From a virus (lineage: Duplodnaviria; Caudoviricetes): a stretch of DNA of 64,000 bases. A program made the position numbers and the translations under genes. Positions 19,167 through 35,167 of this stretch are shown here, in pieces. The stretch's first letter is position 1; every line of letters begins with the position of its first letter. The stretch spans positions 1 through 64,000 of the IMG/VR virus record IMGVR_UViG_3300032269_000703; one strand, written 5' to 3'. Below the pieces are notes generated by a model. The model searched no databases. It had not been told where the DNA came from and saw only the letters and a list, made by a program, of their open reading frames with translations.

Positions 19167-21113
19167 TTACTTTGTTAGGTGTTTGGCGATAGCCATTTTG
19201 ACGATAGATTTTGCTAACCCGATCAAGTGGTCGGGGTGCTGAATGTGTGCCGAGATCATACTTTCGTGGCTTGTTTTTGGATCAAGATCATTACCGATAA
19301 GCGCTAGTGCTGTGATAACTCCTGAACTGCCTAATGTCGAAATGATTTGATCTGCGTTATCACTCTCTATTCCCCATTCGCCGTCTGTAATGGTGAATAG
19401 GATTTTTACATTCCTGCGTGAGTTGGCGAATACGCTCTGCGAATAGAGCAACGCTTCTACTGGATCAGTTCCCCCGTCTGCGCCAGCATCTCGAAGCTCA
19501 CTCTTTACCCTGTCTTGTGGTTCGTAAAGCATTTCGGCATAAGTGTTGTAAGTGATAACGGAACAATTAGCGCCGATAGCCTGTAAGCCCTGCTTGATCG
19601 CAAACATAGACTTATAGGCGCTTACTGCCTTAGATCCAGACATAGACCCGGAGTTGTCTAACAAGATTACGGCTTCGAGATCCGTTGCTTCATCTTGTCC
19701 GTCATACCATTCGTCAAATGTGGTTTCTATGTCCTTTTCGGTTAGGTATCTGCTGGCGTTGATTTTTCCACTATCTAGGCGTGTTCGCCAGTTAGGTTCG
19801 AGATCAGTTCTAATGCGTTCTAGTTCAATTCCAAACTGCTTACCTGCCGCAAGTGTTCGGGTATCTACTTGCCTAGTGGTGTATCTAGCTCGTTTTGGTC
19901 TATCAACCTTTATGTCCTGTAAAGATAGATCATTCTTGAAGTCCCGAATGTCCTTAGTGATTTCGGTTTTTACTTTTTCGAGATCTTTCTGCCATTGGTC
20001 AAGAATGGTGTCTTTCAACATTGGATCTAAATACTTTGGATCGTGTTTTGAAGCGCCATTTGTATCATCTTTATTTGGATCTGGATCTCCCTTGTCCTGA
20101 TCCTTTTTGTTGCTCTTTTGTGAGTTTGGGGTTTGTCCCTGTTTCTGTCCCTGCCCTTGTTCCTGCTCTGGTGTAGGTGTAGGCGAAGTTGGCATAGGGA
20201 ACTTACAACCTGTTTGGTTTTGTGGTTCTGGTTCTGGCTGATCGCCTGGCTTCGGTGGTGCGCTCTGGTTAGTTCCCTTAGTGTTTGTTTCATTACGCTT
20301 GGTTGCGCCGTTTTTAGCGTGTTCCTGATCCTTTATTGGTAGTGGTCGGCTGGCACTAGGTTCTAGTTCATCACTAGGTCTAGTTTCGTGTCCGTTAGGT
20401 GTTGGGATTTTGCCGCAACCTGTTCCAGTTTTCATTTCGCCTAATAGCTCTTGAAGTCTGCGAAGTATGTCTAATGCTCGAAGTATGGTTTGATCGTCAT
20501 TCCATACCATTACTCGGTATTCGTCTAGTAGTGCCTGGATCTCGTCTATGTGTTGTGGTTGAGCATAAACATCTTGAAGCGCCTGTCTAACTGCTACTGG
20601 TAGATACTTGCGACCTGCGACCACCGGAAATTGTGTTGATAGATCGAGATCAGGTGTGAGCAAGTGTCTAAACACGCTGGCATTGAGCCACGCTGTAATG
20701 TTTGTGCCGAACCTGCCGATCAGTAGTGTTTCAATTCGGCTATCTTCTGCTATCGAATACGCTTCCGTAAGGTTTTCTTTGTTGATAATTCTCTTGAATG
20801 ATGATCCATTCCTAGCGCTAAATAGAATGTGGCAGATTTCGTGAAGTGTAAGTCCTTTGAGCGCCATAGCTTTTTTAGGATCAGTAATGTCTGTTAGGTG
20901 ATTAGCTGAATACACGATAGTTCTGCTTGTTGCGACTACTGGGGCAACGCCGAATGGCACGACTAGGCAATTTACGCTTCTAAGCGTGATTACGCTGGCG
21001 TATTTGCTGAATACCTGACTAACTCTCTCTATGCGATCTAACGCTTTCTGCTGTTCTGTTCTGGCGTGGATAGTCCATTTCACGCTGTCTTGATCATCTG
21101 GCAATAACATCAT
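19167..21113 (-). CDS. CobT-like protein: HExxH domain, low-complexity linker, C-terminal vWA domain
   Basis: LHEICH and AEDSRIE; MIDAS motif LLDNSGSM...GGT...ITDGE. Confidence 0.85.
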   Translation of the reverse strand: MMLLPDDQDSVKWTIHARTEQQKALDRIERVSQVFSKYASVITLRSVNCLVVPFGVAPVVATSRTIVYSANHLTDITDPKKAMALKGLTLHEICHILFSARNGSSFKRIINKENLTEAYSIAEDSRIETLLIGRFGTNITAWLNASVFRHLLTPDLDLSTQFPVVAGRKYLPVAVRQALQDVYAQPQHIDEIQALLDEYRVMVWNDDQTILRALDILRRLQELLGEMKTGTGCGKIPTPNGHETRPSDELEPSASRPLPIKDQEHAKNGATKRNETNTKGTNQSAPPKPGDQPEPEPQNQTGCKFPMPTSPTPTPEQEQGQGQKQGQTPNSQKSNKKDQDKGDPDPNKDDTNGASKHDPKYLDPMLKDTILDQWQKDLEKVKTEITKDIRDFKNDLSLQDIKVDRPKRARYTTRQVDTRTLAAGKQFGIELERIRTDLEPNWRTRLDSGKINASRYLTEKDIETTFDEWYDGQDEATDLEAVILLDNSGSMSGSKAVSAYKSMFAIKQGLQAIGANCSVITYNTYAEMLYEPQDRVKSELRDAGADGGTDPVEALLYSQSVFANSRRNVKILFTITDGEWGIESDNADQIISTLGSSGVITALALIGNDLDPKTSHESMISAHIQHPDHLIGLAKSIVKMAIAKHLTK

Positions 21114-21171
21114 TTTTGTTTTCCTGTTCTATGACTTGTTTTGGTTGTAAATAAATTGGATCAGGGCAAGT

Positions 21172-21197
21172 AAAGGGGAATGTTGCCATTCCCCTTT
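21172..21197 (-). terminator. Hairpin / putative terminator between AAA and vWA genes
   Basis: AAAGGGGAATG-TTGC-CATTCCCCTTT. Confidence 0.55.
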
Positions 21198-21228
21198 TCC
21201 TGCTCTCTCTGCTCGGTGTTGGGCAGAA

Positions 21229-22119
21229 TTAGACTTCGTAATCGCCTAGTTCGATTTCTAGTTCATCACTAATGCGCTGTGAGTAAGTCGCAAGCAACAT
21301 AGATACGCTCTGGCGTTCATCTGTCGGGAAGTTTTGAACGAAGTTATAGACGGCGAACCTGAAACTTAGTCCCTTAGCCGTCTGGACAAACTCCTTGATC
21401 AAGCGTGTTGAAATTGGTGTGCTGAACTTGTTTTCGTTGCGAGCAAGCTCTCTCATAGCCTTAGCCAGTTCAAGCAAACTATCACTTGGAATAAAGTTGC
21501 GCTCTAAGATCTCGTCATACTCGAACTCGACCTTTATTGCGTATCTGTCCATAAACGCTTGATCAGGCTTGATTACGCCACGATAATCAAGGTTGGCATC
21601 AGCAATAATCAGGCAGTTTTTATGAACCTTGATTTTCTCGTTTAGGTGTGTGTCCAGCGTGAGTTCTCTCTCTTGGAGAATACGCAGGAATAGAGCATTA
21701 GCCTTAGCGCTCATTCGGGTTGCTTCGTTCAATAGAACTACGCTCTCCTGACCTAGTGCTGTTGCGAGTTCGCTGTTGTGCCAGGCTAGTTGATCACCTT
21801 GTCCAGTTGGCACGAAACCACCTTGAACAATACGAGAGTTCATCTCGGCATTACATTCGACAATAGCTAGTGGTAGTCCCCTAGTTGCTGAATACCACTC
21901 TGCCGTGCTGCTTTTTCCTGTTCCTGCTTCACCAGTAATCATTACGGCTTTTTGATTAGCCCTTGCGTAATCAAGAATGACCCCGATCTGCTGACCTTCG
22001 ATTTCTCTTGGAAAATGTCCTGCCACTTCCGGATCTGTCGGCTGTGGTCGGCGTAGAGTTGCCCATTCCTTACCTGTAAAGGTCGGTGTAAGTGGCTCTA
22101 ACTGGATTTGAATTGCCAT
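21229..22119 (-). CDS. MoxR/CobS/NorQ-type AAA+ ATPase
   Basis: Walker A GEAGTGKS, Walker B VLLNE, and DQAFMDRY and ISTR motifs; partner of the vWA gene. Confidence 0.85.
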   Translation of the reverse strand: MAIQIQLEPLTPTFTGKEWATLRRPQPTDPEVAGHFPREIEGQQIGVILDYARANQKAVMITGEAGTGKSSTAEWYSATRGLPLAIVECNAEMNSRIVQGGFVPTGQGDQLAWHNSELATALGQESVVLLNEATRMSAKANALFLRILQERELTLDTHLNEKIKVHKNCLIIADANLDYRGVIKPDQAFMDRYAIKVEFEYDEILERNFIPSDSLLELAKAMRELARNENKFSTPISTRLIKEFVQTAKGLSFRFAVYNFVQNFPTDERQSVSMLLATYSQRISDELEIELGDYEV

Positions 22120-25845: not shown

Positions 25846-26349
25846 ATGAGCAAAAATGCAAATTTTAAACATGGGTCGCAAACGCTTGTTACACCTACAG
25901 AGCTAAAAAAGCTCGCTAAGTCGTTGCTAGATCCTGAGCACGAAGAGTTTGGTGAGCCAGGCAGTAAGTATCAGGACAGTAACCACCTATACTGGCAGAA
26001 TAGCACTAGGTGGGGTGCTGCCGGTGAGTGTGAGAACACCTCTAGATGGATACACCCGTATCTACCACAGGGCTCTCAGATAGTCAATATGGACAACTCT
26101 AAAGAAGATTCTTGGGTTGATGAGGACGGACAGAGAAGAACTGCCTCAATAGGCAACCACTACGTAACTGTTGTTCCTACTACAGAAGGTCCACACGTAG
26201 TAGACTTTACTCATAGACAGTTTCATAGCACCGCAGAATTTCCTATAGTACAACATATTAACGATTTTATGAAGAGAGCGTCTATGAAAGGCTACATTTT
26301 AGACCAAGAGCAGCTTTCTCCTACACTTAAAGAGAACTTAGGCGAATAA
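25846..26349 (+). CDS. Papain/transglutaminase-like Cys-His-Asp enzyme
   Basis: AAGECENTS...GNHYVTVV...VVDFTHRQF; leader MSKNANF. Confidence 0.6.
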   Translation: MSKNANFKHGSQTLVTPTELKKLAKSLLDPEHEEFGEPGSKYQDSNHLYWQNSTRWGAAGECENTSRWIHPYLPQGSQIVNMDNSKEDSWVDEDGQRRTASIGNHYVTVVPTTEGPHVVDFTHRQFHSTAEFPIVQHINDFMKRASMKGYILDQEQLSPTLKENLGE

Positions 26350-26759
26350 TGGATATACCTAGACAGTTTCAACACCTATTTTTTCATGTAAGCCCTAGAA
26401 GTAACCGCGAAAGCATAGAATCTAAGGGTCTACAGGCTAATGACGCCTATAATGACCAAACAGATACTTCTAATGGTATTGGCGTGTTTGTTTCTCATGA
26501 ACCTGATACATCTTTTGGCGATGACATTTATGGCATTGAAAACCCTCCTACAGGTAGAAAAGCCACAATTTCATTCATGGGAAGAACTCGTGAGTATGAT
26601 GAAGGCAAACATGACCTAGAAGATGCTCTTGATACTGAGGGTGTGTTTATACCCCATGATGTTCCTACCAGTGATTTTAAGCGAATAGGTCACGTATTCA
26701 TGAATAATGGACACCCAGAGATCCACTGGCATAAAGAAGAAGAGTGTCCTAATGGGTAG
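26349..26759 (+). CDS. ADP-ribosyltransferase-like protein (His-type)
   Basis: FFHVSPRSNRESIESKGL...GVFVS...FGDDIY; leader MDIPRQF. Confidence 0.6.
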   Translation: MDIPRQFQHLFFHVSPRSNRESIESKGLQANDAYNDQTDTSNGIGVFVSHEPDTSFGDDIYGIENPPTGRKATISFMGRTREYDEGKHDLEDALDTEGVFIPHDVPTSDFKRIGHVFMNNGHPEIHWHKEEECPNG

Positions 26760-27159
26760 AACTAATGGAGAGTTTCAAAATGGAACTGGAAAAGTCATGG
26801 TTGGATACCATGTGTCGTCTAATAGTAATAGAGATAGTATAGAAAAAACCGGATTGGTATCTAGCTGGGTAGGCAATGATCGTAGGGCTAAAGCTACTAA
26901 AGGTGTATTTTTTAGTACAGATAAAGAGTACTTGGATGATTTTGGCGGGGTTAAAAGTGACATTTGGAAAGTAACAGTTCCTATTGCCGGAATAGAAGAA
27001 GATTCTCATAAAGAAAATGCCTTTTACTCTAAAGATGATATACCACGTAGAAATGTTGAACGGGTAGGTCATTTTACAAAAGCTCCTGAATCAGACAATA
27101 AATTTGCTCCTTATTTAGAAATACATTGGCATAAAGAGGAGGACTGCCCTAATGAGTAA
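26752..27159 (+). CDS. ADP-ribosyltransferase-like protein, paralog of 26349
   Basis: GYHVSSNSNRDSIEKTGL...GVFFS...DIWKV; shared C-terminus GH...EIHWHKEE.CPN; leader MGRTNGEF. Confidence 0.6.
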   Translation: MGRTNGEFQNGTGKVMVGYHVSSNSNRDSIEKTGLVSSWVGNDRRAKATKGVFFSTDKEYLDDFGGVKSDIWKVTVPIAGIEEDSHKENAFYSKDDIPRRNVERVGHFTKAPESDNKFAPYLEIHWHKEEDCPNE

Positions 27160-27616
27160 TGAAGAAGACGAGTTTGACTATAGTTCAGCTATTACAAACC
27201 CTGAATACTATAAGCATGAAGATGATGGACCACAGGTACCAATGACAGGTCGTGTGGCTAGATTGCATAACATAACCTATGTACCTATGTCTGACGATGA
27301 GATTATAAATCATGAAAATGAAAATTTTAGTGAGCTAGACCCTGAAACCTGGGAATATCCTAATGAAAAAGAAAAGTTATTAGATAGAAATACGCCTTTG
27401 TTTAGCAAACAATCACATTTTGGCACACAGGGCATTAGGCACTATATAGACAATCCGGATGTACTTGCTGATCGTTACACTGATTATCCTACACCAGTAG
27501 TGTACACAGGTAAAGATGGTAAGATGTGGATACACAATGGGCATCACAGGATTATATCTTCTCGCCTACGTGGAGAACAATCTATCAAAGTAATTGACCG
27601 TGGAGTAAGAGCCTAA
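27152..27616 (+). CDS. ParB/Sulfiredoxin-like domain protein
   Basis: PVVYTGKDGKMWIHNGHHRIISSRLRGEQSIKV. Confidence 0.7.
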   Translation: MSNEEDEFDYSSAITNPEYYKHEDDGPQVPMTGRVARLHNITYVPMSDDEIINHENENFSELDPETWEYPNEKEKLLDRNTPLFSKQSHFGTQGIRHYIDNPDVLADRYTDYPTPVVYTGKDGKMWIHNGHHRIISSRLRGEQSIKVIDRGVRA

Positions 27617-28335
27617 TGGAGCTAGGTAGACAATTTAAACAACCACACCAGATGTCGCCTGATGAGTTTGCGGCACATCCTGCTGCTATCTTTCACGGCA
27701 CTTATTTGCCTGATGAAGATGTTATGGACGTGACTAATAGGCGTGGGTACCCTTCTTCTGGAGATAATTACTATGAGAACGGCAAGCCTATAGATGTAGT
27801 GCCAAAAATGCATTTAGGTACTTTTCAAGCTGCATTAGATGCTGTAATTCAAAATAGGAATAGTTATAGCGATAAAGCGACTATTCACACATATTGGCAA
27901 ACTCCTAAAGTGTCAGGTGCTACAGGTAATCTGCGTCTATCTAACTTTTTTAATGTAGATAAAGGTCCTTCTGAAGAAGACGTCAATAACCCAGAGAATG
28001 TGGCGCACTTTGTTCCAGGTGCACATTACTACGAGAATCAAAATGAAGGCGAAATAGGTGATCCTTCTTTTGCAACTGACACTCCTCACAAGTATTTGAC
28101 ATCACAAGCAGATTATGTTAAAGCAGCCTTAGATCGTGGTGTACCTGAATCTGAGATACACCCAAGAACATTAAAGCTATATAAAGCGGGTACTCTAGGA
28201 AAAATGACTATGCCAGCAAGAGTAGCTGACTACATGACTAAATATCACAATAAGCTAGGACCTTACACTAATGCAGGTCCTACATGGGATTACCTAAACT
28301 CTGAAGAAGAAGCGCCTAAAAGATCTGAAGAATAG
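27616..28335 (+). CDS. ADP-ribosyltransferase-like protein (polyvalent-protein type)
   Basis: IFHGT...MHLGTFQAA...YENQNEG; leader MELGRQF. Confidence 0.55.
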   Translation: MELGRQFKQPHQMSPDEFAAHPAAIFHGTYLPDEDVMDVTNRRGYPSSGDNYYENGKPIDVVPKMHLGTFQAALDAVIQNRNSYSDKATIHTYWQTPKVSGATGNLRLSNFFNVDKGPSEEDVNNPENVAHFVPGAHYYENQNEGEIGDPSFATDTPHKYLTSQADYVKAALDRGVPESEIHPRTLKLYKAGTLGKMTMPARVADYMTKYHNKLGPYTNAGPTWDYLNSEEEAPKRSEE

Positions 28336-28388
28336 ACATAAAACGCCAACGTAGGTAAGTATACTAGTACTTAGACGTAAGGATGTAC

Positions 28389-28895
28389 ATGACAGAATTA
28401 GGCGGGCAATTTAACTGCCCAGATTGTGGAAAGCCACAATATTCAGAAAATGGTTTTGAACCACACGACCACAGTGATACTTGCCCTACTTGTGGCGACT
28501 CTAAGGCAGATGGTCATTGGCACACCGGAATGAAGATTACTCTAGATCCTAGCGACCTTGATTTTTACAAAAAAGTAAATGAGATGGGTAAACTCCAGGG
28601 TCAACTAGATAATATCGATGCCACTAGAGAAGTAGACCTAACTAACAAAGCAGACCTTATAGACCACTTAGGATCTGACAATGGGCACGGTTTTTCTCCT
28701 TACGCAGACTGGTGCCACACATATGATGGCGAAGGTCTACGTACTACTTCTAAATGTAACGAAGAGATGGATCATGAGATGACCCTTACTCAGCTACAGA
28801 GTGTTCACCAGGAGCTTCATGAAAAGTATGGTGAAGATTATCCACACGAAAACACTGGTGACTGGCGTTCCGGCACTCACAGGCACTTGGAGTAA
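28389..28895 (+). CDS. Zinc-ribbon / His-rich protein
   Basis: Leader MTELGGQF then CPDC...H..CPTC...H. Confidence 0.55.
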   Translation: MTELGGQFNCPDCGKPQYSENGFEPHDHSDTCPTCGDSKADGHWHTGMKITLDPSDLDFYKKVNEMGKLQGQLDNIDATREVDLTNKADLIDHLGSDNGHGFSPYADWCHTYDGEGLRTTSKCNEEMDHEMTLTQLQSVHQELHEKYGEDYPHENTGDWRSGTHRHLE

Positions 28896-28898
28896 CCA

Positions 28899-29261
28899 AT
28901 GGGAAGAAGTAAAGCAAGCTTTAACGCTGCTGTTCCTTTGCATGATTTGACACAAGGATTTGGTCCAGATGTGTACGATAATCTAGATAAGCACGTTGTA
29001 AGTTCTGTTCTTAAAGATATTATTATTAGATCTAGAAATAAGCCGTCTAAACTTTCAAGGCTGCATATACTCGTCCCAACTGGTAGCCGCGGGGTGAACC
29101 AAGGAGACATAGGATTTTTAGATCGTGAAGATGCTGCACGAGAAGGAAGAGCTACTATGCCAGATGGTTTTAGACTAACAACTAGGAACCTACCTGCTAA
29201 ATATCTGTTTACGACTGGCGATCTTAGCAGATGGACTTGGAACCCAGGAAAGACTGAATAA
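28899..29261 (+). CDS. Degenerate ART-like domain protein
   Basis: LVP...GVNQGDI...LPAKYLFTTGDLSRW resembles an ART-fold module of polyvalent proteins; leader MGRSKASF. Confidence 0.4.
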   Translation: MGRSKASFNAAVPLHDLTQGFGPDVYDNLDKHVVSSVLKDIIIRSRNKPSKLSRLHILVPTGSRGVNQGDIGFLDREDAAREGRATMPDGFRLTTRNLPAKYLFTTGDLSRWTWNPGKTE

Positions 29262-29716
29262 TGACTGAACAAGGATCCCAATTTACATGTCCACAATGTG
29301 GTACGCCGCAGTTTACTGCAGAGTTTGGTTTTGAACGCCATTATCATGAACCTAATGATGTAAAAGACCCATGTGTTTTTTGTGGTGAAAGTACTGCACC
29401 TGCTAAAGGAGCTAATTTAGGTAATTTAGACCTAGGTGAACTTTTTAAAACAAATTCCTTAATAAATTCTAAGTTTGTAAATAGACTTCCGGGAACTTGG
29501 CAAGATCCAAATGACCCAAAGAAAACAATAGAAGGTTATGCGTGTGCTGACTGTATGAGTTCTGATTGTAAAACATGTGGTAAGCCAGTTCGTTTAGATG
29601 AAGAAGTTGTAGATAAAAATGGAGAGTGGCACCACCATGGATGTTTAAACCCAAAAGACGCAGATGAATATTATCAAGACTGTGAATGCGATGATTGTGA
29701 AAAGTGGCGTAAATGA
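29261..29716 (+). CDS. Multi-zinc-finger protein, N-terminus paralogous to 28389
   Basis: Leader MTEQGSQF then CPQC, CVFC, CADC, CKTC...HHGC. Confidence 0.55.
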   Translation: MTEQGSQFTCPQCGTPQFTAEFGFERHYHEPNDVKDPCVFCGESTAPAKGANLGNLDLGELFKTNSLINSKFVNRLPGTWQDPNDPKKTIEGYACADCMSSDCKTCGKPVRLDEEVVDKNGEWHHHGCLNPKDADEYYQDCECDDCEKWRK

Positions 29717-30327
29717 CAAGCTTAAGCCCAATGTTTGATGATGATTATTTAAAGAATCCAGATGACTACGTAACACTCTACCGTGGTCGTGAGCACTATT
29801 GGAGCTGGGAGCTGCCTAAGACACAAGAAGACCTAAAAGGTCTAGGAATGCATTGGACAACAGACCCACGTATTGCTGCTCATTTTGGTTCTGGTTGGAA
29901 CGATATGGATAACGATGAGCCTAACTCTAAAGGAAAAACAACAAGAACTGCTGGTGGTCACGTTGTTACAGCTAGAGTACACAAAAGCGGCATTATTGAG
30001 CGCGGAACTCCTGAATGGAATTCTTTTGCCAAACGTCACGCTATTGCAGGATTTGGAGATGAAGACCCTACAACTGAATCAAGTAATTTTGAAAAAGAAG
30101 TAACTATACGTCCAGGAACTCCACTTTATGTAACTAATGTTGTGCCTGTTAGAGAACTTGGATTAGAAGCTTCTCCTGCTTTAAGACAAGTAACTGGAGC
30201 AAAACGCAATACGCCTGTGTATGGTATTAAAGGTAAACTTAAAGGTAAAAAATGGGGACCAACATTAGTAGACAAGGCAGCTGTGGATAAAGGCGGATAT
30301 GTCAAAAAAGGTAAGGGAACTGCATAA
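29713..30327 (+). CDS. ADP-ribosyltransferase (R-S/T-ExE type, Alt/Mod-like chemistry)
   Basis: VTLYRG...LGMHWTTDPRIAAHF...FEKEVTI; leader MTSLSPMF. Confidence 0.65.
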   Translation: MTSLSPMFDDDYLKNPDDYVTLYRGREHYWSWELPKTQEDLKGLGMHWTTDPRIAAHFGSGWNDMDNDEPNSKGKTTRTAGGHVVTARVHKSGIIERGTPEWNSFAKRHAIAGFGDEDPTTESSNFEKEVTIRPGTPLYVTNVVPVRELGLEASPALRQVTGAKRNTPVYGIKGKLKGKKWGPTLVDKAAVDKGGYVKKGKGTA

Positions 30328-30405
30328 TGCCAAAATTAGGCGCAATTAGCAGCCGAAAACGATATTAGATAGATATAATAACCTTATTAAACAAAAGGAT
30401 TGACT

Positions 30406-30627
30406 ATGAAGAATAAACCTGGAAATGGAAAGCAAGTACTTAAAACTGCTTTAACAGGAATGGGCACAGGTGCTATCATTGGAAGCACTATACACCCAGA
30501 CAATCTTCTCTATGTAGCAGGTAGCTCTCTTCTTGGCGGTATGGCTGCTACTGGTGTTGCAGGTCTAAAAGGCGAAGGTAAGCGTAATAAGAGTTTCAAT
30601 GAAGGCAAAGACAACTCTAGACGATAA
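30406..30627 (+). CDS. Small glycine-zipper membrane protein
   Basis: GxxxG-rich hydrophobic helices; C-terminal KRNKSF. Confidence 0.45.
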   Translation: MKNKPGNGKQVLKTALTGMGTGAIIGSTIHPDNLLYVAGSSLLGGMAATGVAGLKGEGKRNKSFNEGKDNSRR

Positions 30628-31151
30628 TGAGCCTACACCACATTGAAGCATTAGCTACTTTAGCTAATATGCACTATATTGCTAGCCAAATACACGCGCG
30701 CACGCCTGTGAACGACGAAACAGGTAAAAGCATTGTTGATTACATGGATGATGCCACTAAGCACCTTAATCAGTCTCTACTTCATTCAAACACCGGTAAT
30801 GCACAGAGTTCTTTATTTTCTTTAAGACAAACATACCAGCACACACAGGGTGTTATGAATATGCTTTTGGAAGCAGGAGAGCACCAGATCAACGAAGCTG
30901 AAAACGGCAGAATGCTTGGAAGCGATCTTATTAAGAATATGACTGATATGAACGCATTTGTTGACCACCATGCCGCATTTTTAGACAAAGGCAAAGCGAT
31001 TGTTGCTGATCAGCAAGAAAAAGGTTTAGCCCAAAAAGATTTACAAAACAACGCTAAAGATGTCATTGAGGGTATTGCAGATGACAACAACCTTTTTCTT
31101 CCAGGCAGCTGGGTAAACCGTGGCAATAACAAAGCCCCGAATGGAGAGTAA
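30627..31151 (+). CDS. Helical His-rich hypothetical protein
   Basis: 174 aa, coupled. Confidence 0.5.
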   Translation: MSLHHIEALATLANMHYIASQIHARTPVNDETGKSIVDYMDDATKHLNQSLLHSNTGNAQSSLFSLRQTYQHTQGVMNMLLEAGEHQINEAENGRMLGSDLIKNMTDMNAFVDHHAAFLDKGKAIVADQQEKGLAQKDLQNNAKDVIEGIADDNNLFLPGSWVNRGNNKAPNGE

Positions 31152-31588
31152 TGTCACACAGTGATAATCCTTATGGCTGGGAGTCTAATGATGACTATAG
31201 CCAGCCACAGAATATAGAGCCTGTATATCAGCAACTTTTGGGTCATCTAGCTAATGCACATAAAATTGCTGTTCAATATCCTAAATGGAGATCGCTTGGT
31301 AGACATATTCCTCGTATTGAAGCAGCTAGAGAACTTGTTAAAGAAGCGGCTATACACTCCGCATCTTTTTTGACAGGTAGAGCCGTAGGATCTTTACATG
31401 AAGCTATGGATGCAGTAACCCCTGTAATTAGCGATTCTTATAAAGATACAATGCCTCATGACTATGACGGTGCTGTAGATCCTAGAGACCCTGCTATTAA
31501 ATTCCATAATCACATGTCTGATTTCTTTTTTAAAGCACACAAAGAAACTGGTGGTTCATTACCTGGAGAAGAAGGTTGGGATAACTAA
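31151..31588 (+). CDS. Helical His-rich hypothetical protein
   Basis: 145 aa, coupled. Confidence 0.5.
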   Translation: MSHSDNPYGWESNDDYSQPQNIEPVYQQLLGHLANAHKIAVQYPKWRSLGRHIPRIEAARELVKEAAIHSASFLTGRAVGSLHEAMDAVTPVISDSYKDTMPHDYDGAVDPRDPAIKFHNHMSDFFFKAHKETGGSLPGEEGWDN

Positions 31589-32301
31589 TGGCTTTTAAAC
31601 CTATTAAGATTTGGGCTGGTAGAAACAGCGTTCCTATGAGAGAAGATCTAGAAGCTTCTAATAGTGATGCCGTAGAAGCTATACGTTCCGATATTAAACA
31701 AAAGTATGGCGAAACATCTCTAAATTGGGGTTTAAAGATTCCTGAAGCTGATGCAGAGTTTCGTGCTCGTTATAATGAGCTTCCAAGTACTTATGACGCC
31801 GCTAACTTTAAACTGTTTCATAATTCTGAGCACAAGTTTGAGCCTGGTGATATTGTAAAGCCAACTATGTCAATATACCATGCTGCTGGTGAACAAGGTA
31901 TGGATGATGAAGAACGCAAAGGTATGAGCAAAAAATACCATGCTTGGGCTGCAGCAACTCCTGATTACCAAAAAACACGTGGTAGATACACTTATGAGGT
32001 AGAGCCTATTACAAAACACAGTTGGGTTCAAGAAGATCCAGTAGGTTTTGAAAATGGCGAATTTGCTGCTCCAGAGGGTTACAGGGTCAAACAAGTAGTT
32101 TGGGATAAAGAAAAAGATTCTTGCCCTACTTGTGAAGGTAATGGAGTGCATCTTAGGGTATACCAAAACGCGTATCCATATCATCCAGAATGCACTGATT
32201 GTTTTGGAACAGGGTTGTCTACATCAAAAATTGTTGGATTACAAAAAGCCGGTCATAAGCTAGATGAAATAAAAGCATTTAAAGCTCCGATAGATTATTA
32301 A
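31588..32301 (+). CDS. Arr-like ADP-ribosyltransferase with DnaJ-type zinc finger
   Basis: LFHNSEHKFEPGDIVKP...AWAAA...YTYEVEP...DP...EF; CPTCEGNG and CTDCFGTG. Confidence 0.55.
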   Translation: MAFKPIKIWAGRNSVPMREDLEASNSDAVEAIRSDIKQKYGETSLNWGLKIPEADAEFRARYNELPSTYDAANFKLFHNSEHKFEPGDIVKPTMSIYHAAGEQGMDDEERKGMSKKYHAWAAATPDYQKTRGRYTYEVEPITKHSWVQEDPVGFENGEFAAPEGYRVKQVVWDKEKDSCPTCEGNGVHLRVYQNAYPYHPECTDCFGTGLSTSKIVGLQKAGHKLDEIKAFKAPIDY

Positions 32302-32304
32302 ATT

Positions 32305-32604
32305 ATGGGTAAAAGAAAAAAGCCAGTACAAAGTGAAGCAGCTGAATTAGCTGAACTACAAGAAGCTGCTAGCCAAGAGCACAATAGAAGATGTTCAGAT
32401 ATCTTTAATGAGTACCCTGAAGATGAACACGATACTCTTCGCAATGATTTAATGGATCAAGCTGCTCATGATATTAATGAAGAATTTATTAAGCAGTATC
32501 CTGTATGGGCTAAAGCTTATGGACCTAAACCTCCTAAATCAATACAGTTTAAAAAAATCCAAGGAAATATTGGATTAGATATTGGAGCTAAAAAGTATGA
32601 CTAA
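32305..32604 (+). CDS. Hypothetical protein
   Basis: 99 aa. Confidence 0.5.
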   Translation: MGKRKKPVQSEAAELAELQEAASQEHNRRCSDIFNEYPEDEHDTLRNDLMDQAAHDINEEFIKQYPVWAKAYGPKPPKSIQFKKIQGNIGLDIGAKKYD

Positions 32605-32947
32605 TCCAGAAGAATTTGATTTTAGTCATATTAATGAGACTAACGCTCCTAGAACAATGGGAGAGCTACACGAATTAACTGAAGGTAGACCTCTTAGTAG
32701 AGCACAATGGAATAACATTATGGAGTTAGGTCTTAAACGCACCGCTAATGAAGAAGCAAATCCACCTAAGCCTGTTCCTGAAGGAATGGCTAATCCTAAT
32801 CTAGGTGATCTAGAGTCTGAAGTTGGTGCTCAAAAAGTTGGCTGCAATAACTGTGGCGAACTAATGTCTCGTGATCAGCATAAAGAAGAAGGCGGATTAT
32901 GCTTTGATTGCTGGAAAACTCAACAGGAAGAGGATAGACATGAGTAA
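32597..32947 (+). CDS. Hypothetical protein with C-terminal zinc ribbon
   Basis: Start MTNPEEFDFS; CNNC...CFDC. Confidence 0.5.
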   Translation: MTNPEEFDFSHINETNAPRTMGELHELTEGRPLSRAQWNNIMELGLKRTANEEANPPKPVPEGMANPNLGDLESEVGAQKVGCNNCGELMSRDQHKEEGGLCFDCWKTQQEEDRHE

Positions 32948-33245
32948 ATCACCTGCATGGCAAAGAGCAGAAGGAAAGAACCCTAAAGGCGGTCTTAATG
33001 CCAAGGGTAGAGCTTCTGCTAAAAAAGAGGGGCATAACCTCAAAGCACCTGTAAAAAAGGGCGACAATCCTCGTAGAGCCTCTTTCTTGGCTAGAATGGC
33101 TGGCAACCCAGGTCCAGAGCGTAAACCCAATGGTGAGCCTACTAGACTGCTTTTAAGCCTAGAAGCATGGGGTGCCTCATCTAAAGCTGACGCTAGACAA
33201 AAAGCTGCTGCTATTCGTAAGCGTAATGAAGGAAAGAAGAAGTAA
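32940..33245 (+). CDS. Conserved basic phage protein (DUF6321-like)
   Basis: MSKSPAWQRAEGKNPKGGLNAKGRAS...RRASFLARM. Confidence 0.65.
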   Translation: MSKSPAWQRAEGKNPKGGLNAKGRASAKKEGHNLKAPVKKGDNPRRASFLARMAGNPGPERKPNGEPTRLLLSLEAWGASSKADARQKAAAIRKRNEGKKK

Positions 33246-33406
33246 TGGCTACTAAAAAAGTTTGGGAAAAACCAGATCCTACTAAAAAAGACAAGCCTCT
33301 AAGCAAAAAGCAAAAATCATCGGCTAAAGCTCGTGCCAAAGCTGCTGGTCGTCCATACCCTAACCTAGTAGATAACATGGCGGCTTCTAGAAAGAAAAAG
33401 AAGTAA
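33245..33406 (+). CDS. Small basic protein (53 aa)
   Basis: MATKKVWEKP...AKARAKAAGRPYPNLVDNM; coupled at both ends. Confidence 0.6.
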   Translation: MATKKVWEKPDPTKKDKPLSKKQKSSAKARAKAAGRPYPNLVDNMAASRKKKK

Positions 33407-33762
33407 TGGATGAACAAAATCTAAACGATCAGCAGTTTGGTCCTTGGAAAATGACTCCTACCATGAAGGCTGTTCATGAGTATATGAAAACTAGACATGT
33501 TGGTGTAGAAAACAGAGGCGGTATGTGGGACATTGCAGCAGCTACTGTTACAAACCATAAAAAACAGTATTTAACTAATGCTAAACATGAAGCCCACTTT
33601 GAGGCATTAAATCGTCTAATTGATAATGGAATTGTAAAAAAGAACTCTGGAGACTACCATAATGGAGATGATATCGATACTGCGTGGATTCCTGTAGAAG
33701 GTGAAAAAACTGTAAAAGAACTGTACATGGAAGAACTTGAACATAAATTTGGCAGTCAGTAA
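33406..33762 (+). CDS. Possible winged-helix protein
   Basis: MWDIAAA...EALNRLIDNGIVKK; leader NLNDQQF. Confidence 0.45.
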   Translation: MDEQNLNDQQFGPWKMTPTMKAVHEYMKTRHVGVENRGGMWDIAAATVTNHKKQYLTNAKHEAHFEALNRLIDNGIVKKNSGDYHNGDDIDTAWIPVEGEKTVKELYMEELEHKFGSQ

Positions 33763-34172
33763 TGGGTAGAAATACTGCAGCATTTCAAGGTGGTCAAGGA
33801 CTATCTATTGTTCATGATAAAGGACAAAAAGTATCTTTACACAAAGTTGGAGAAGGTGAGGTATCTAGTATAGATTACCATTTACCAGAACCAAATAGGG
33901 TATACATTTCTATGATGAATACTCCATGGGAGTATGAAGGTAATGGGTATTCTTCTTACCTAGTAAACCATCTGTATAACTATTACCCAAACCACACAAT
34001 AGATTTTGGCGATATTGTCCACCCAGCGGCAGAACACATTATGGAAAAGATGATGTCACAACATGGCAGAACAGTATACAGCACTTCGTCTAAAGACTGG
34101 ACTTGCAAAGAGTGCGGAGAAGAAAATTTTTCTAGAGATATGTTACGTGAGCATGAAGAAGAGAATCACTAA
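33762..34172 (+). CDS. GNAT-fold acetyltransferase-like protein with C2H2 finger
   Basis: ISMMNTPWEYEGNGYSSYLV (motif A-like); CKEC...H...H; leader MGRNTAAF. Confidence 0.6.
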   Translation: MGRNTAAFQGGQGLSIVHDKGQKVSLHKVGEGEVSSIDYHLPEPNRVYISMMNTPWEYEGNGYSSYLVNHLYNYYPNHTIDFGDIVHPAAEHIMEKMMSQHGRTVYSTSSKDWTCKECGEENFSRDMLREHEEENH

Positions 34173-34531
34173 TGGGTAGAAATAATGCAGACTTCCATGG
34201 TTACACTCTAGAGTTTGAGCACGCTGATACTTCTCCTGTAGAAGACTGTGATCACCACAGAGTAGATGCTTTTGATAAAGATGATGAGCATGTAGGCAGT
34301 TTAATATGGTTCACGCATGACGCGGGCGCGCGTACCCCAGGCGCAATAGACGTAGATGTAGACCCTGAACACCAGCGTAAAGGTATAGCTACTGCTATGT
34401 ACAAGTTTGCTTTACAAAAAGCTGCTGAACATAACATTATTAAGCCAGATCTACTTAGGTCTTCGTATGGACCTGAAGGGTATAGATGGGCTAGATCTTT
34501 AGGATTACCTAAGAAGTTTGGTGAAAGATAG
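34172..34531 (+). CDS. GNAT acetyltransferase
   Basis: VDVDPEHQRKGIATAMY acetyl-CoA binding motif; leader MGRNNADF. Confidence 0.8.
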   Translation: MGRNNADFHGYTLEFEHADTSPVEDCDHHRVDAFDKDDEHVGSLIWFTHDAGARTPGAIDVDVDPEHQRKGIATAMYKFALQKAAEHNIIKPDLLRSSYGPEGYRWARSLGLPKKFGER

Positions 34532-34645: not shown

Positions 34646-35167
34646 ATGCACATTAACGTACCAGATCCATGGGATAAACACAAAAACCCATATATTAACC
34701 CACATGATCCGTGGGATAAGAAAAAAGAGTGGGAAAAACCTGCTCCACCAAAGATTATTACAATTAATGATCTATTTCCTCGTTTAGACCGCCTTTCTAT
34801 TGGTTGGTCTCCACTTCTTGATCAACTCAAGGAGATTACTAACAACAAGCCAAGTTACCCTCCATATGACATTGTTCAGATGGATGAAGAGACAAACCTA
34901 CTCAACGTAGCTGTTGCTGGGTTTACTAAGAAGGAAGTTACTGTTACTGTAAAAGATTCAGCAATTACCATCGAAGGTAAGCAGAAAGAAAAGCAACGTG
35001 GCGAAGTTGTTTACCAGGGCATTGCTACACGGGACTTTAAGTTGTCGCTAGCAATTGCTGAATACTGGGAAGTTACTAATGCTCTAATGGAAAACGGTAT
35101 GTTGACTATTCAATTCAACAAGATCCTTCCTGAAGAGCTGAAGCCAAAGGTAATTGACATTAACTAG
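34646..35167 (+). CDS. Small heat-shock protein (Hsp20/IbpA family)
   Basis: SYPPYDIV...VAVAGF...YQGIATRDF...MENGMLTI...PEELKPKVIDI. Confidence 0.93.
   Translation: MHINVPDPWDKHKNPYINPHDPWDKKKEWEKPAPPKIITINDLFPRLDRLSIGWSPLLDQLKEITNNKPSYPPYDIVQMDEETNLLNVAVAGFTKKEVTVTVKDSAITIEGKQKEKQRGEVVYQGIATRDFKLSLAIAEYWEVTNALMENGMLTIQFNKILPEELKPKVIDIN

Follow-up and report, generated by a model that had tools for sequence, protein, structure and literature searches.

The stretch of DNA studied here, referred to as the window, comprises the first 64 kb (positions 1 to 64,000) of the IMG/VR virus record IMGVR_UViG_3300032269_000703, which is assigned to the Caudoviricetes and is complete at 93,035 bp with direct terminal repeats. 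Between positions 25,846 and 34,531, the window carries an array of about twenty genes for small proteins, which are referred to below by their first nucleotide (Table 1). It appears that this array is a hypervariable set of cassettes, some of which encode proteins with the ADP-ribosyltransferase (ART) fold, that its products may modify the host or nucleic acids, and that its content turns over by recombination at gene boundaries; we put the probability of this reading as a whole at about 60%. At the level of fold and profile comparison, at least three of the proteins (27616, 29713, and 31588) and probably five (with 26349 and 26752) are predicted to have the ART fold, and they fall into four unrelated families. 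The array also includes one GNAT acetyltransferase, one protein with a ParB/Srx-like domain, and several zinc-finger proteins. Stand-alone phage ARTs and polyvalent effectors are already known; what is new here is the presence of several ART families in one array, together with an N-terminal leader that is shared by many of its proteins.

The array was compared with its relatives on a 14.8-kb contig from ENA (L004), on two short contigs (L005 and L006), and in two sister phages of about 90 kb (L222 and L223). Orthologues occur in these relatives in conserved order with amino acid identities of 37 to 100%, and the array genes are therefore real. The flanks of the array are shared by L004, L222, and L223, with minus-strand VWA and AAA_5 genes on one side and hsp20 on the other, and the arrays differ from one another by gain, loss, replacement, and relocation of genes. 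Variable content between conserved flanks is what had been expected in a prediction made earlier from the sequence of the window (the original prediction). Clustering of the array proteins gave as core families those of 28899 (F1), 27152 (F2), 30627 (F3), and 26349, while 25846, 29261, 30406, and 33762 of the window, and a PNKP-type phosphatase and families of 206 and 221 amino acids (aa) elsewhere, are present in some arrays only; 33406 has been relocated in L004 (4726-5085). Blocks of similarity found by blastn have both their ends no more than a few bases away from gene boundaries, and the identity of adjacent genes ranges from 71% to 97%. For example, 34172 and its counterpart L004_10751 are 100% identical in amino acid sequence and 97% in DNA, while the neighbouring genes are 71-86% identical in DNA. 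Since the similarity blocks end at gene boundaries and the identity jumps from one gene to the next, recombination proceeds cassette by cassette, and the repertoire of the array turns over in this way.

Two cassettes of the relatives deserve a separate mention. One, within the array of L004 (L004:7280-7753), encodes a PNKP-type HAD phosphatase (PF25109, 7.9e-22), hinting at nucleic-acid end processing among the cassettes. The other is the 221-aa family (L004:10086-10751, L005:3257-3922, L222:13924-14592), which the window lacks and for which there is no Pfam match; its initial W-Y-H-A-G...L-x-x-G looks like another His-type ART-like opening.

The family of 27616 (A7) appears, from a structure prediction, to be an undescribed lineage with the ART fold. 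The AlphaFold2 model is confident (predicted local distance difference test, pLDDT, 91; predicted template modelling score, pTM, 0.88). Structures were compared by an all-against-all VIA search of 48,161 chains, and in two runs all of the best 50 matches of the model belonged to the ART superfamily. The best was MbcT with a Z-score of 6.1 (root-mean-square deviation 3.7 Å, 133 residues aligned), followed by diphtheria toxin (5.8), ParT (5.5), and the RES toxins VPA0770 (5.4) and RES-Xre (5.2), and the rows also include PARPs, Tpt1, Arr, and DarT. By Foldseek, a RES toxin was the best match (E = 0.037); other leading matches were Tpt1, tankyrases, MbcT, and the cholera and pertussis toxins. The Foldseek list was dominated by the families seen with VIA, but no match had E ≤ 0.001. 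The search tool warns that a Z-score below 8 can reflect a common arrangement; since the best Z-score of 27616 is lower than this, the assignment is to the fold and not to a family. An FHGT/HLGT-type ART had been predicted for this gene, and both the motifs and an ART-like predicted fold are indeed present.

An exhaustive HMMER search of 1.84 billion representatives for homologues of 27616 gave 51 relatives at E ≤ 1e-3, and 48 of these were aligned. A Pfam domain was found in none of the 48. The profile had no match among PDB sequences, and tblastn of 27616 gave no match among the GenBank phages (50,697 genomes). By hhalign, family A7 was not significantly similar to the Arr, Tpt1, DUF3990, or DarT references, despite Atlas leads to DUF4433 and DUF3990. 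In the alignment, H27 is kept in 46 and H66 in 47 of the 48 sequences, and G68, Y139, N141, E144, and S151 in all of them; such retention would be expected of an active enzyme. In structure, the 27616 model comes closest to RES NADases and MbcT, together with ARTs of the diphtheria-toxin and PARP types, but the protein differs from them in its low identity (3-11%), in its own conserved motifs, and in that the RES hidden Markov model (HMM) does not match it. Moreover, unlike RES and MbcT toxins, 27616 has no evident antitoxin-like partner.

Gene 29713 encodes a probable ART of the R-S-E type, judging from its motifs and the matches of its model. For the R-T-ExE-type ART that had been predicted here, the motif part holds: in the alignment, T49, T50, E127, and E129 are present in six of six sequences and R24 in five of six. 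The fold part is less secure, since the matches are almost only to ARTs but the AlphaFold2 model behind them is poor (pLDDT 47). About 45 of its best 50 VIA matches are ARTs, with a best Z-score of 5.9, and the Foldseek matches are mostly ARTs as well. The matched structures are IcmQ (5.9), PARP16 (5.5), TreTu, TreX, Tpt1, PARPs, diphtheria, pertussis, and cholix toxins, and Arr. Seven homologues were found, none carrying a Pfam domain; the profile of 29713 gave nothing but RadA noise among PDB sequences, and a search of IMG/VR for related loci with 29713 returned one weak locus.

In the GenBank phages, the sole tblastn match of 29713 was to gp89 of Bxz1/Dandelion-type mycobacteriophages, with E = 0.5 in that database; by blastp in a small local database, 29713 and Dandelion gp89 match with 1.9e-5. 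The gp89 protein (L007:2168-4483) has 772 aa and is annotated as a ParB-like nuclease domain protein, with no Pfam match at E ≤ 0.01. Its N-terminal domain shares with 29713 the motifs YRG, HWTTD-RIA, and E-x-E-V-T-x-x-P-G-T-P-L. A region with a Y-H-A-T motif near the C-terminus of gp89 weakly resembles the 31588 family. The models of 27616 and 29713 each show a weak similarity (Z-scores 4.1 and 3.7, respectively) to a chain of the pre-ejectosome of cyanophage A4 (9k3a_B, chain B), which suggests that there may be an ART-like module in this solved ejection protein.

According to profile comparison, 31588 carries an Arr-like ART domain with an insert, followed by a C-terminal zinc finger of the DnaJ type. 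The Arr-like ART predicted for this gene is thus borne out at the profile level, by way of a gene in the homologous array of a sister phage. This gene, L223_13369 (L223:13369-13947), encodes a protein of 192 aa with an MGRSNEEF leader and a C-terminal zinc ribbon, which passes the threshold of the Pfam model Arr-ms (38.8 bits) and is similar to Arr references by hhalign (97%). The references were 15 true Arr sequences from actinobacterial genomes. The 31588 family (A6) gave 41% (P = 2.8e-4, at the His motif) against these references alone, 78% (P = 1.8e-5) against L223_13369 alone, and 94% (P = 1.3e-7) against both together, where 74-107 columns covering the whole Arr domain were aligned. Therefore, L223_13369 bridges the 31588 family to Arr. 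The likeness includes the motifs F-H-x-S...PGD and Y-x-V-E-P, and H78, S80, Y136, and E139 are invariant in the family. The 31588 protein differs from Arr in an insert of 45 residues before the domain and in the DnaJ-type finger, and it is invisible to the Arr-ms HMM (PF12120, cut-off 25 bits), which matched no frame of the genome at E ≤ 10 and gave no match for 31588 in hmmscan at E ≤ 1. Its aromatic position is occupied by Trp, where Arr presumably has Tyr. Among PDB sequences, the profile matched with its zinc finger only.

The paralogues 26349 and 26752 (family A5) are probably ART-fold proteins too, as far as profile comparison can tell. They are proteins of 135-136 aa with 34% identity (E = 1e-13), so that the predicted paralogy stands, while the predicted His-type ART-like domain is linked, weakly, to the His motif of Tpt1. 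The family has 48 homologues, none with a Pfam domain, and in 47 sequences H13, R20, D59, R112, H115, H126, H128, E131, and C133 are invariant, the last four forming the C-terminal H-x-H...C knuckle. Against the PDB, the A5 profile matched Tpt1 only (E = 0.75), at the motif that opens the ART domain of Tpt1. Against 14 Tpt1 references, hhalign gave 47% (P = 1.9e-4) over 29 columns at the His motif, and a relaxed alignment was collinear across the next two strands, covering only positions 91-161 of the Tpt1 profile, its ART half. In a control with the same set-up, Arr, Tpt1, DUF3990, and DarT references compared with one another gave P values of 0.003-0.4. Since A5 and Tpt1 score better than these bona fide ART families do among themselves, the link is suggestive. 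The Tpt1/KptA HMM (PF01885) matched neither 26349 nor 26752, both of which lack the N-terminal RNA-binding half of Tpt1, and tblastn of 26349 found no match in the GenBank phages. By hhalign, no relationship was detectable among A5, A6, and A7.

A ParB/Srx domain had been predicted in 27152, which probably carries a domain of this kind. The gene has the motif NGHHR but no direct Pfam match; its family (five members) aligns, with the C-terminal 70 residues of 27152, to residues 364-424 of gp002 of Stenotrophomonas phage DLP_3 (hhalign 92%, P = 5e-7). The gp002 protein has 445 aa, and its gene is flanked by those for the portal and the head protease. Below the Pfam thresholds, gp002 matches MuF and, over its C-terminal region, ParBc_2 (21.3 bits against a cut-off of 23.6). 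With chromosomal ParB_N, hhalign gave P values of 0.22-0.25 for the 27152 family; loci from G759, G767, and G776 were left out of the ParB reference set. A profile match of 27152 to a beta-propeller in the PDB was dismissed as a repeat artefact. The GNAT predicted at 34172 is well supported (33.5 bits against the PF00583 cut-off of 20.7), and the zinc ribbons predicted in the array correspond to CxxC pairs in 28389, 29261, and 32597, which are zinc-ribbon-like with weak Pfam or PHROG matches. Two of the ten domain calls of the original prediction failed. For the GNAT called at 33762, Acetyltransf_CG gives 15.6 bits against a cut-off of 30, and the hhalign match to the 34172 family consists of residues 1-10, that is, of the leader only. 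The degenerate ART called at 28899 has no support in Pfam or the PDB, where it has no match; its only match is a weak one to the PHROG 'ParB C-terminal domain' (phrog_2579, 6.5e-4).

Bacteriophage T4 has several ARTs, Alt, ModA, and ModB, one of which is packaged in the head. ART, GNAT, and ParB domains are also present in polyvalent proteins and MuF-fused virion proteins. By analogy with all of these, each enzyme of the array may act on a host or nucleic-acid target, modifying it with NAD+ (or acetyl-CoA) for takeover or counter-defence. The array resembles the T4 system in having several stand-alone ART genes in one genome, with presumed host targets and possible delivery by the virion. It differs in that there is no sequence match, in that the ART-fold proteins belong to four unrelated families including the His type, in that their genes are shuffled within one cluster, and in the shared leader. 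In MuF-effector fusions encoded beside the portal, such as DLP_3 gp002, the ParB-like C-terminal domain is homologous to that of 27152, but 27152 is without a MuF part, and a distance of 20 kb separates it from the portal gene.

Polyvalent proteins contain two to fifteen effector domains in one polypeptide (PMC5512222), and ARTs are the commonest modifying domains among them (PMC5512222, PMC9503650). According to Iyer et al. (2017, PMC5512222), solo forms of the domains are common, and polyvalent proteins were assembled from such solo versions, which is the opposite of splitting. Their kinds of domain recur in the array (ART, GNAT, ParB/Srx, and zinc ribbons, with a papain-like peptidase as a possible further one), and 29713 is homologous to the first domain of gp89, a protein of the ART-ParB type. 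However, each domain of the array is a separate gene, an open reading frame (ORF) that has a stop and a start to itself. Furthermore, a processing peptidase such as MPTase was not recognised, and the ART-PolyVal HMM is without a match. Since the defining fusion is absent, and since Iyer et al. argue for assembly from solo domains, the description of the array as a polyvalent protein split into genes, made in the original prediction, does not go beyond an analogy. The exchangeable effector arsenal of the same prediction fares better: exchange between fixed flanks and an enrichment of modifying folds were found, and the part concerning takeover or anti-defence is drawn by analogy.

Several points weigh against the reading of the array as a set of modifying enzymes. 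More than half of its genes are without an assignable function, and therefore an 'enzyme arsenal' fits a minority only. The Z-scores of the structural matches are modest (maximum 6.1), the 29713 model is poor, and the match of 26349 and 26752 to Tpt1 is based on a short motif. No match of the Arr-ms, ART-PolyVal (PF18760), or RES (PF08808) HMMs was found in any frame of the genome, the latter two having been searched at E ≤ 10 as well. When all 20 ORFs were compared with Pfam and PHROGs, the only matches were to GNAT, DUF6321, phrog_34011, and, weakly, zinc fingers, and Pfam at E ≤ 1 sees no ART, ParB, or papain domain where these had been called. In addition, the TAATG coupling by which many of the genes are joined occurs at other places in the same genome, so that it is a habit of the phage and not a mark of the array.

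Many of the array proteins begin alike. Phe is found at residue 7 or 8 in 12 of the 20 array genes, compared with 8 of 132 other genes (Fisher P = 5e-8). The leaders are of two classes, M-G-R-[NST]-x-x-x-F and M-x-x-[LP]-[GR]-x-Q-F, and they precede unrelated folds (GNAT, ART families, and zinc-ribbon proteins). They recur in the sister phages and all through the 47-member A5 family, and they are also present on the genes 8233, 8764, 37106, and 41154 of the window. At the DNA level, a 42-nt repeat (84% identity) occurs at 26736-26777 and 34155-34197, in each case consisting of a gene end and the MGR leader of the next gene; it is possibly a recombination linker.

The T4 capsid-targeting sequence directs internal proteins to the procapsid. 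By comparison, it may be proposed, though it is rather unlikely, that the array proteins are virion cargo, that is, that the leader targets them to the procapsid, so that they are injected with the DNA and act before phage genes are expressed. This would refine the reading of the array as a set of exchangeable modifying proteins. The enrichment of the leader and its recurrence on unrelated families would fit such a role, as would the position of the array, which shares its strand with the terminase, portal, and capsid genes and lies upstream of them. So would the ParB domain of a MuF head protein and the ART domain of a polyvalent-type protein, both of them homologous to domains of the array, and the weak matches of 27616 and 29713 to the pre-ejectosome chain; head-packaged ARTs may also be widespread (PMC9503650). 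However, neither a prohead protease nor a MuF gene was recognised in the window, and a start at a divergent intergenic region, such as the array has, is rather a feature of early operons. The leader may equally well serve translation re-initiation or, in view of the 42-nt repeat, be a recombination linker. Tentatively, the leader could be seen as an addressing tag, most plausibly for the procapsid, on a changeable set of separate small enzymes, so that a polyvalent effect would be reached with one tag per gene. If it is a tag, single effectors could be swapped by recombination at conserved junctions; if it is a packaging tag, it would offer an easy means of bringing foreign proteins into capsids.

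The ART-fold genes might instead serve repair or the benefit of the host, in that the Tpt1-like paralogues remove 2'-phosphates when tRNAs cleaved by anticodon nucleases of the host are repaired, and the Arr-like protein inactivates a rifamycin-type small molecule, to the protection of the infected cell. Both the Tpt1 His-motif match of the 26349 family and the phosphatase gene in the L004 array would agree with repair, and the Arr-family ARTs found in actinophages have been taken as antibiotic-resistance functions (PMC9503650). This explanation is nevertheless unlikely. The 26349 family, of about 130 aa, is without the RNA-binding half of Tpt1. RNA ligase, 2H phosphoesterase, and Macro domain were searched for and none was found in the 93-kb genome, which is weak evidence given the divergence of the proteins. 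As to host benefit, 31588 fails the Arr-ms HMM and has Trp at the aromatic position, and four ART families with fast turnover fit conflict better than housekeeping. Finally, it is highly unlikely that most of the array proteins are non-enzymes with an ART- or ParB-like scaffold, acting as binders or pseudo-enzymes (sponges for NAD+ or ADP-ribose signals, decoys, or defence inhibitors): small binders are common among phage anti-defence proteins, and the small size of the proteins, their extreme divergence from all curated families, and the loss of R24 in one 29713 homologue would suit them. However, the 26349 and 27616 families, each with 47-48 diverse members, have invariant His, Arg, Asp, and Glu residues, and E-x-E is present in all 29713 homologues, which argues for catalysis.

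If the array proteins are active as modifying enzymes, they would be new NAD+-dependent modifiers, of the kind that has yielded mechanisms of anti-defence and host takeover. Two of the families, with about 50 members each, are absent from the 50,697 GenBank phage genomes; Pfam has no model for them, and sequence comparison detects no relative of solved structure. Furthermore, sister phages with the same flanks and swapped cassettes are a natural series that points to which genes are core (families F1 and F3) and which are exchangeable.

The array consists of 20 ORFs on the plus strand, which fill positions 25846-34531, and 15 of its 19 junctions overlap (ten by the 1 nt of TAATG, four by 8 nt, and one by 4 nt), so that the tightly coupled array of about 20 short genes described in the original prediction is confirmed. 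A Shine-Dalgarno-like sequence is present only at two gaps (53 and 78 nt), and most junctions are without one. The array would be translated as one chain, by termination and re-initiation at the overlapping stop and start sites, and its transcription may begin in the preceding divergent intergenic region (25.4-25.8 kb) and run rightward. A scan for promoters and terminators gave sites no commoner than in shuffled sequence, and megablast of the array against the GenBank phages gave no match.

Table 1. Genes of the array and its conserved flanks in the window, with the evidence for each description.
Position	Strand	Description	Evidence and relatives
19167..22119	-	Conserved left flank, VWA and AAA_5 (MoxR-like) genes	Pfam
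25846..26349	+	First array gene, candidate Cys-His-Asp enzyme, 167 aa from ATG at 25846	
26349..26759	+	Paralogue 1 of His-motif family A5; probable minimal ART-like domain, then invariant H-x-H...C knuckle	
26752..27159	+	Paralogue 2 of family A5, MGRTNGEF leader	72% identical to L222_10001
27152..27616	+	Protein with ParB/Srx-like C-terminal domain (NGHHR), family F2	
27616..28335	+	Member of divergent ART-fold family A7 (predicted)	AlphaFold2 model with VIA and Foldseek; motifs F-H-[SGT]-[ST], H-x-G-[TS], Y-x-N-x-x-E
28389..28895	+	Zinc-ribbon-like protein, N-terminal CxxC...CxxC	Weak zinc-finger Pfam match; 90% identical to L004_4217
28899..29261	+	120-aa protein, family F1	Orthologues in L004, L005, L006, L223, L224
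29261..29716	+	Cys-rich zinc-ribbon protein	Weak zinc-finger Pfam match; no full-length orthologue in L004
29713..30327	+	R-S-E-type ART-like protein, motifs YRG, HWTT, E-K-E	Motif conservation and fold matches
30406..30627	+	Small Gly/Ala-rich, probably membrane protein	Sequence only; preceded by 78-nt gap with AAGGA; no orthologue in relatives
30627..31151	+	Protein of conserved family F3	Orthologues in L004, L005, L222, L223; no Pfam or PHROG match
31151..31588	+	Family F18 protein	37% identical to L004_7753
31588..32301	+	Arr-like ART domain (family A6), then DnaJ-type CxxCxGxG zinc finger	hhalign
32305..32604	+	Family F6 protein	90% identical to L004_8759
32597..32947	+	Protein with C-terminal CxxC...CxxC, family F11	phrog_25582 (1e-3); 84% identical to L004_9051
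32940..33245	+	DUF6321 protein	PF19846 (1.1e-20); PHROG matches at C-terminal ends of profiles 99-928 positions long
33245..33406	+	Small basic protein	phrog_34011 (7.8e-20)
33406..33762	+	Family F19 protein	71% identical to L004_4726; other position in L004
33762..34172	+	MGRN leader and C-terminal C2H2-type zinc finger	phmmer against PDB zinc fingers (3.8e-6)
34172..34531	+	GNAT acetyltransferase, last array gene	PF00583 (5.4e-8)
34646..35167	+	Conserved right flank, HSP20 small heat-shock protein	87% identical to L004_11696, which has PF00011

Among the other genes of the array, 25846 has C, H, and D in order in its sequence and an Atlas language-model lead (0.89) to the SseI/Tox-PLDMTX papain-like family; it had no match in Pfam, PHROG, the PDB, or, by tblastn, the phages, and no orthologue in L004, L222, or L223. 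The N-terminal 40 aa of 28389 are paralogous to 29261. Family F1, to which 28899 belongs, is the one with the widest occurrence among the arrays compared; a tblastn match of 28899 in Gordonia phages was rejected as spurious, being antisense to an annotated primase gene. The C2H2-type finger of 33762 occupies its C-terminal 30 residues and is unusual for a phage protein.

The phage genome carries an SPP1-type portal, a T4-type large terminase, and a class II ribonucleotide reductase. An actinobacterial host had been assumed, and the terminase, which is 52% identical to those of Streptomyces phage BRock and its kin, agrees with this; the G+C content of 41% and the relatives of the DUF6321 protein (32940) speak against it. 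The DUF6321 protein matches 489 GenBank phage records, mostly of cyanophages, and its nearest genes are those of pelagiphages and cyanophages (76% identity with a Pelagibacter phage gene), which points to a probably aquatic origin of the phage. The host may possibly be an aquatic actinobacterium. The phage itself belongs to a family of uncultured phages of about 90-95 kb with an SPP1-type portal.

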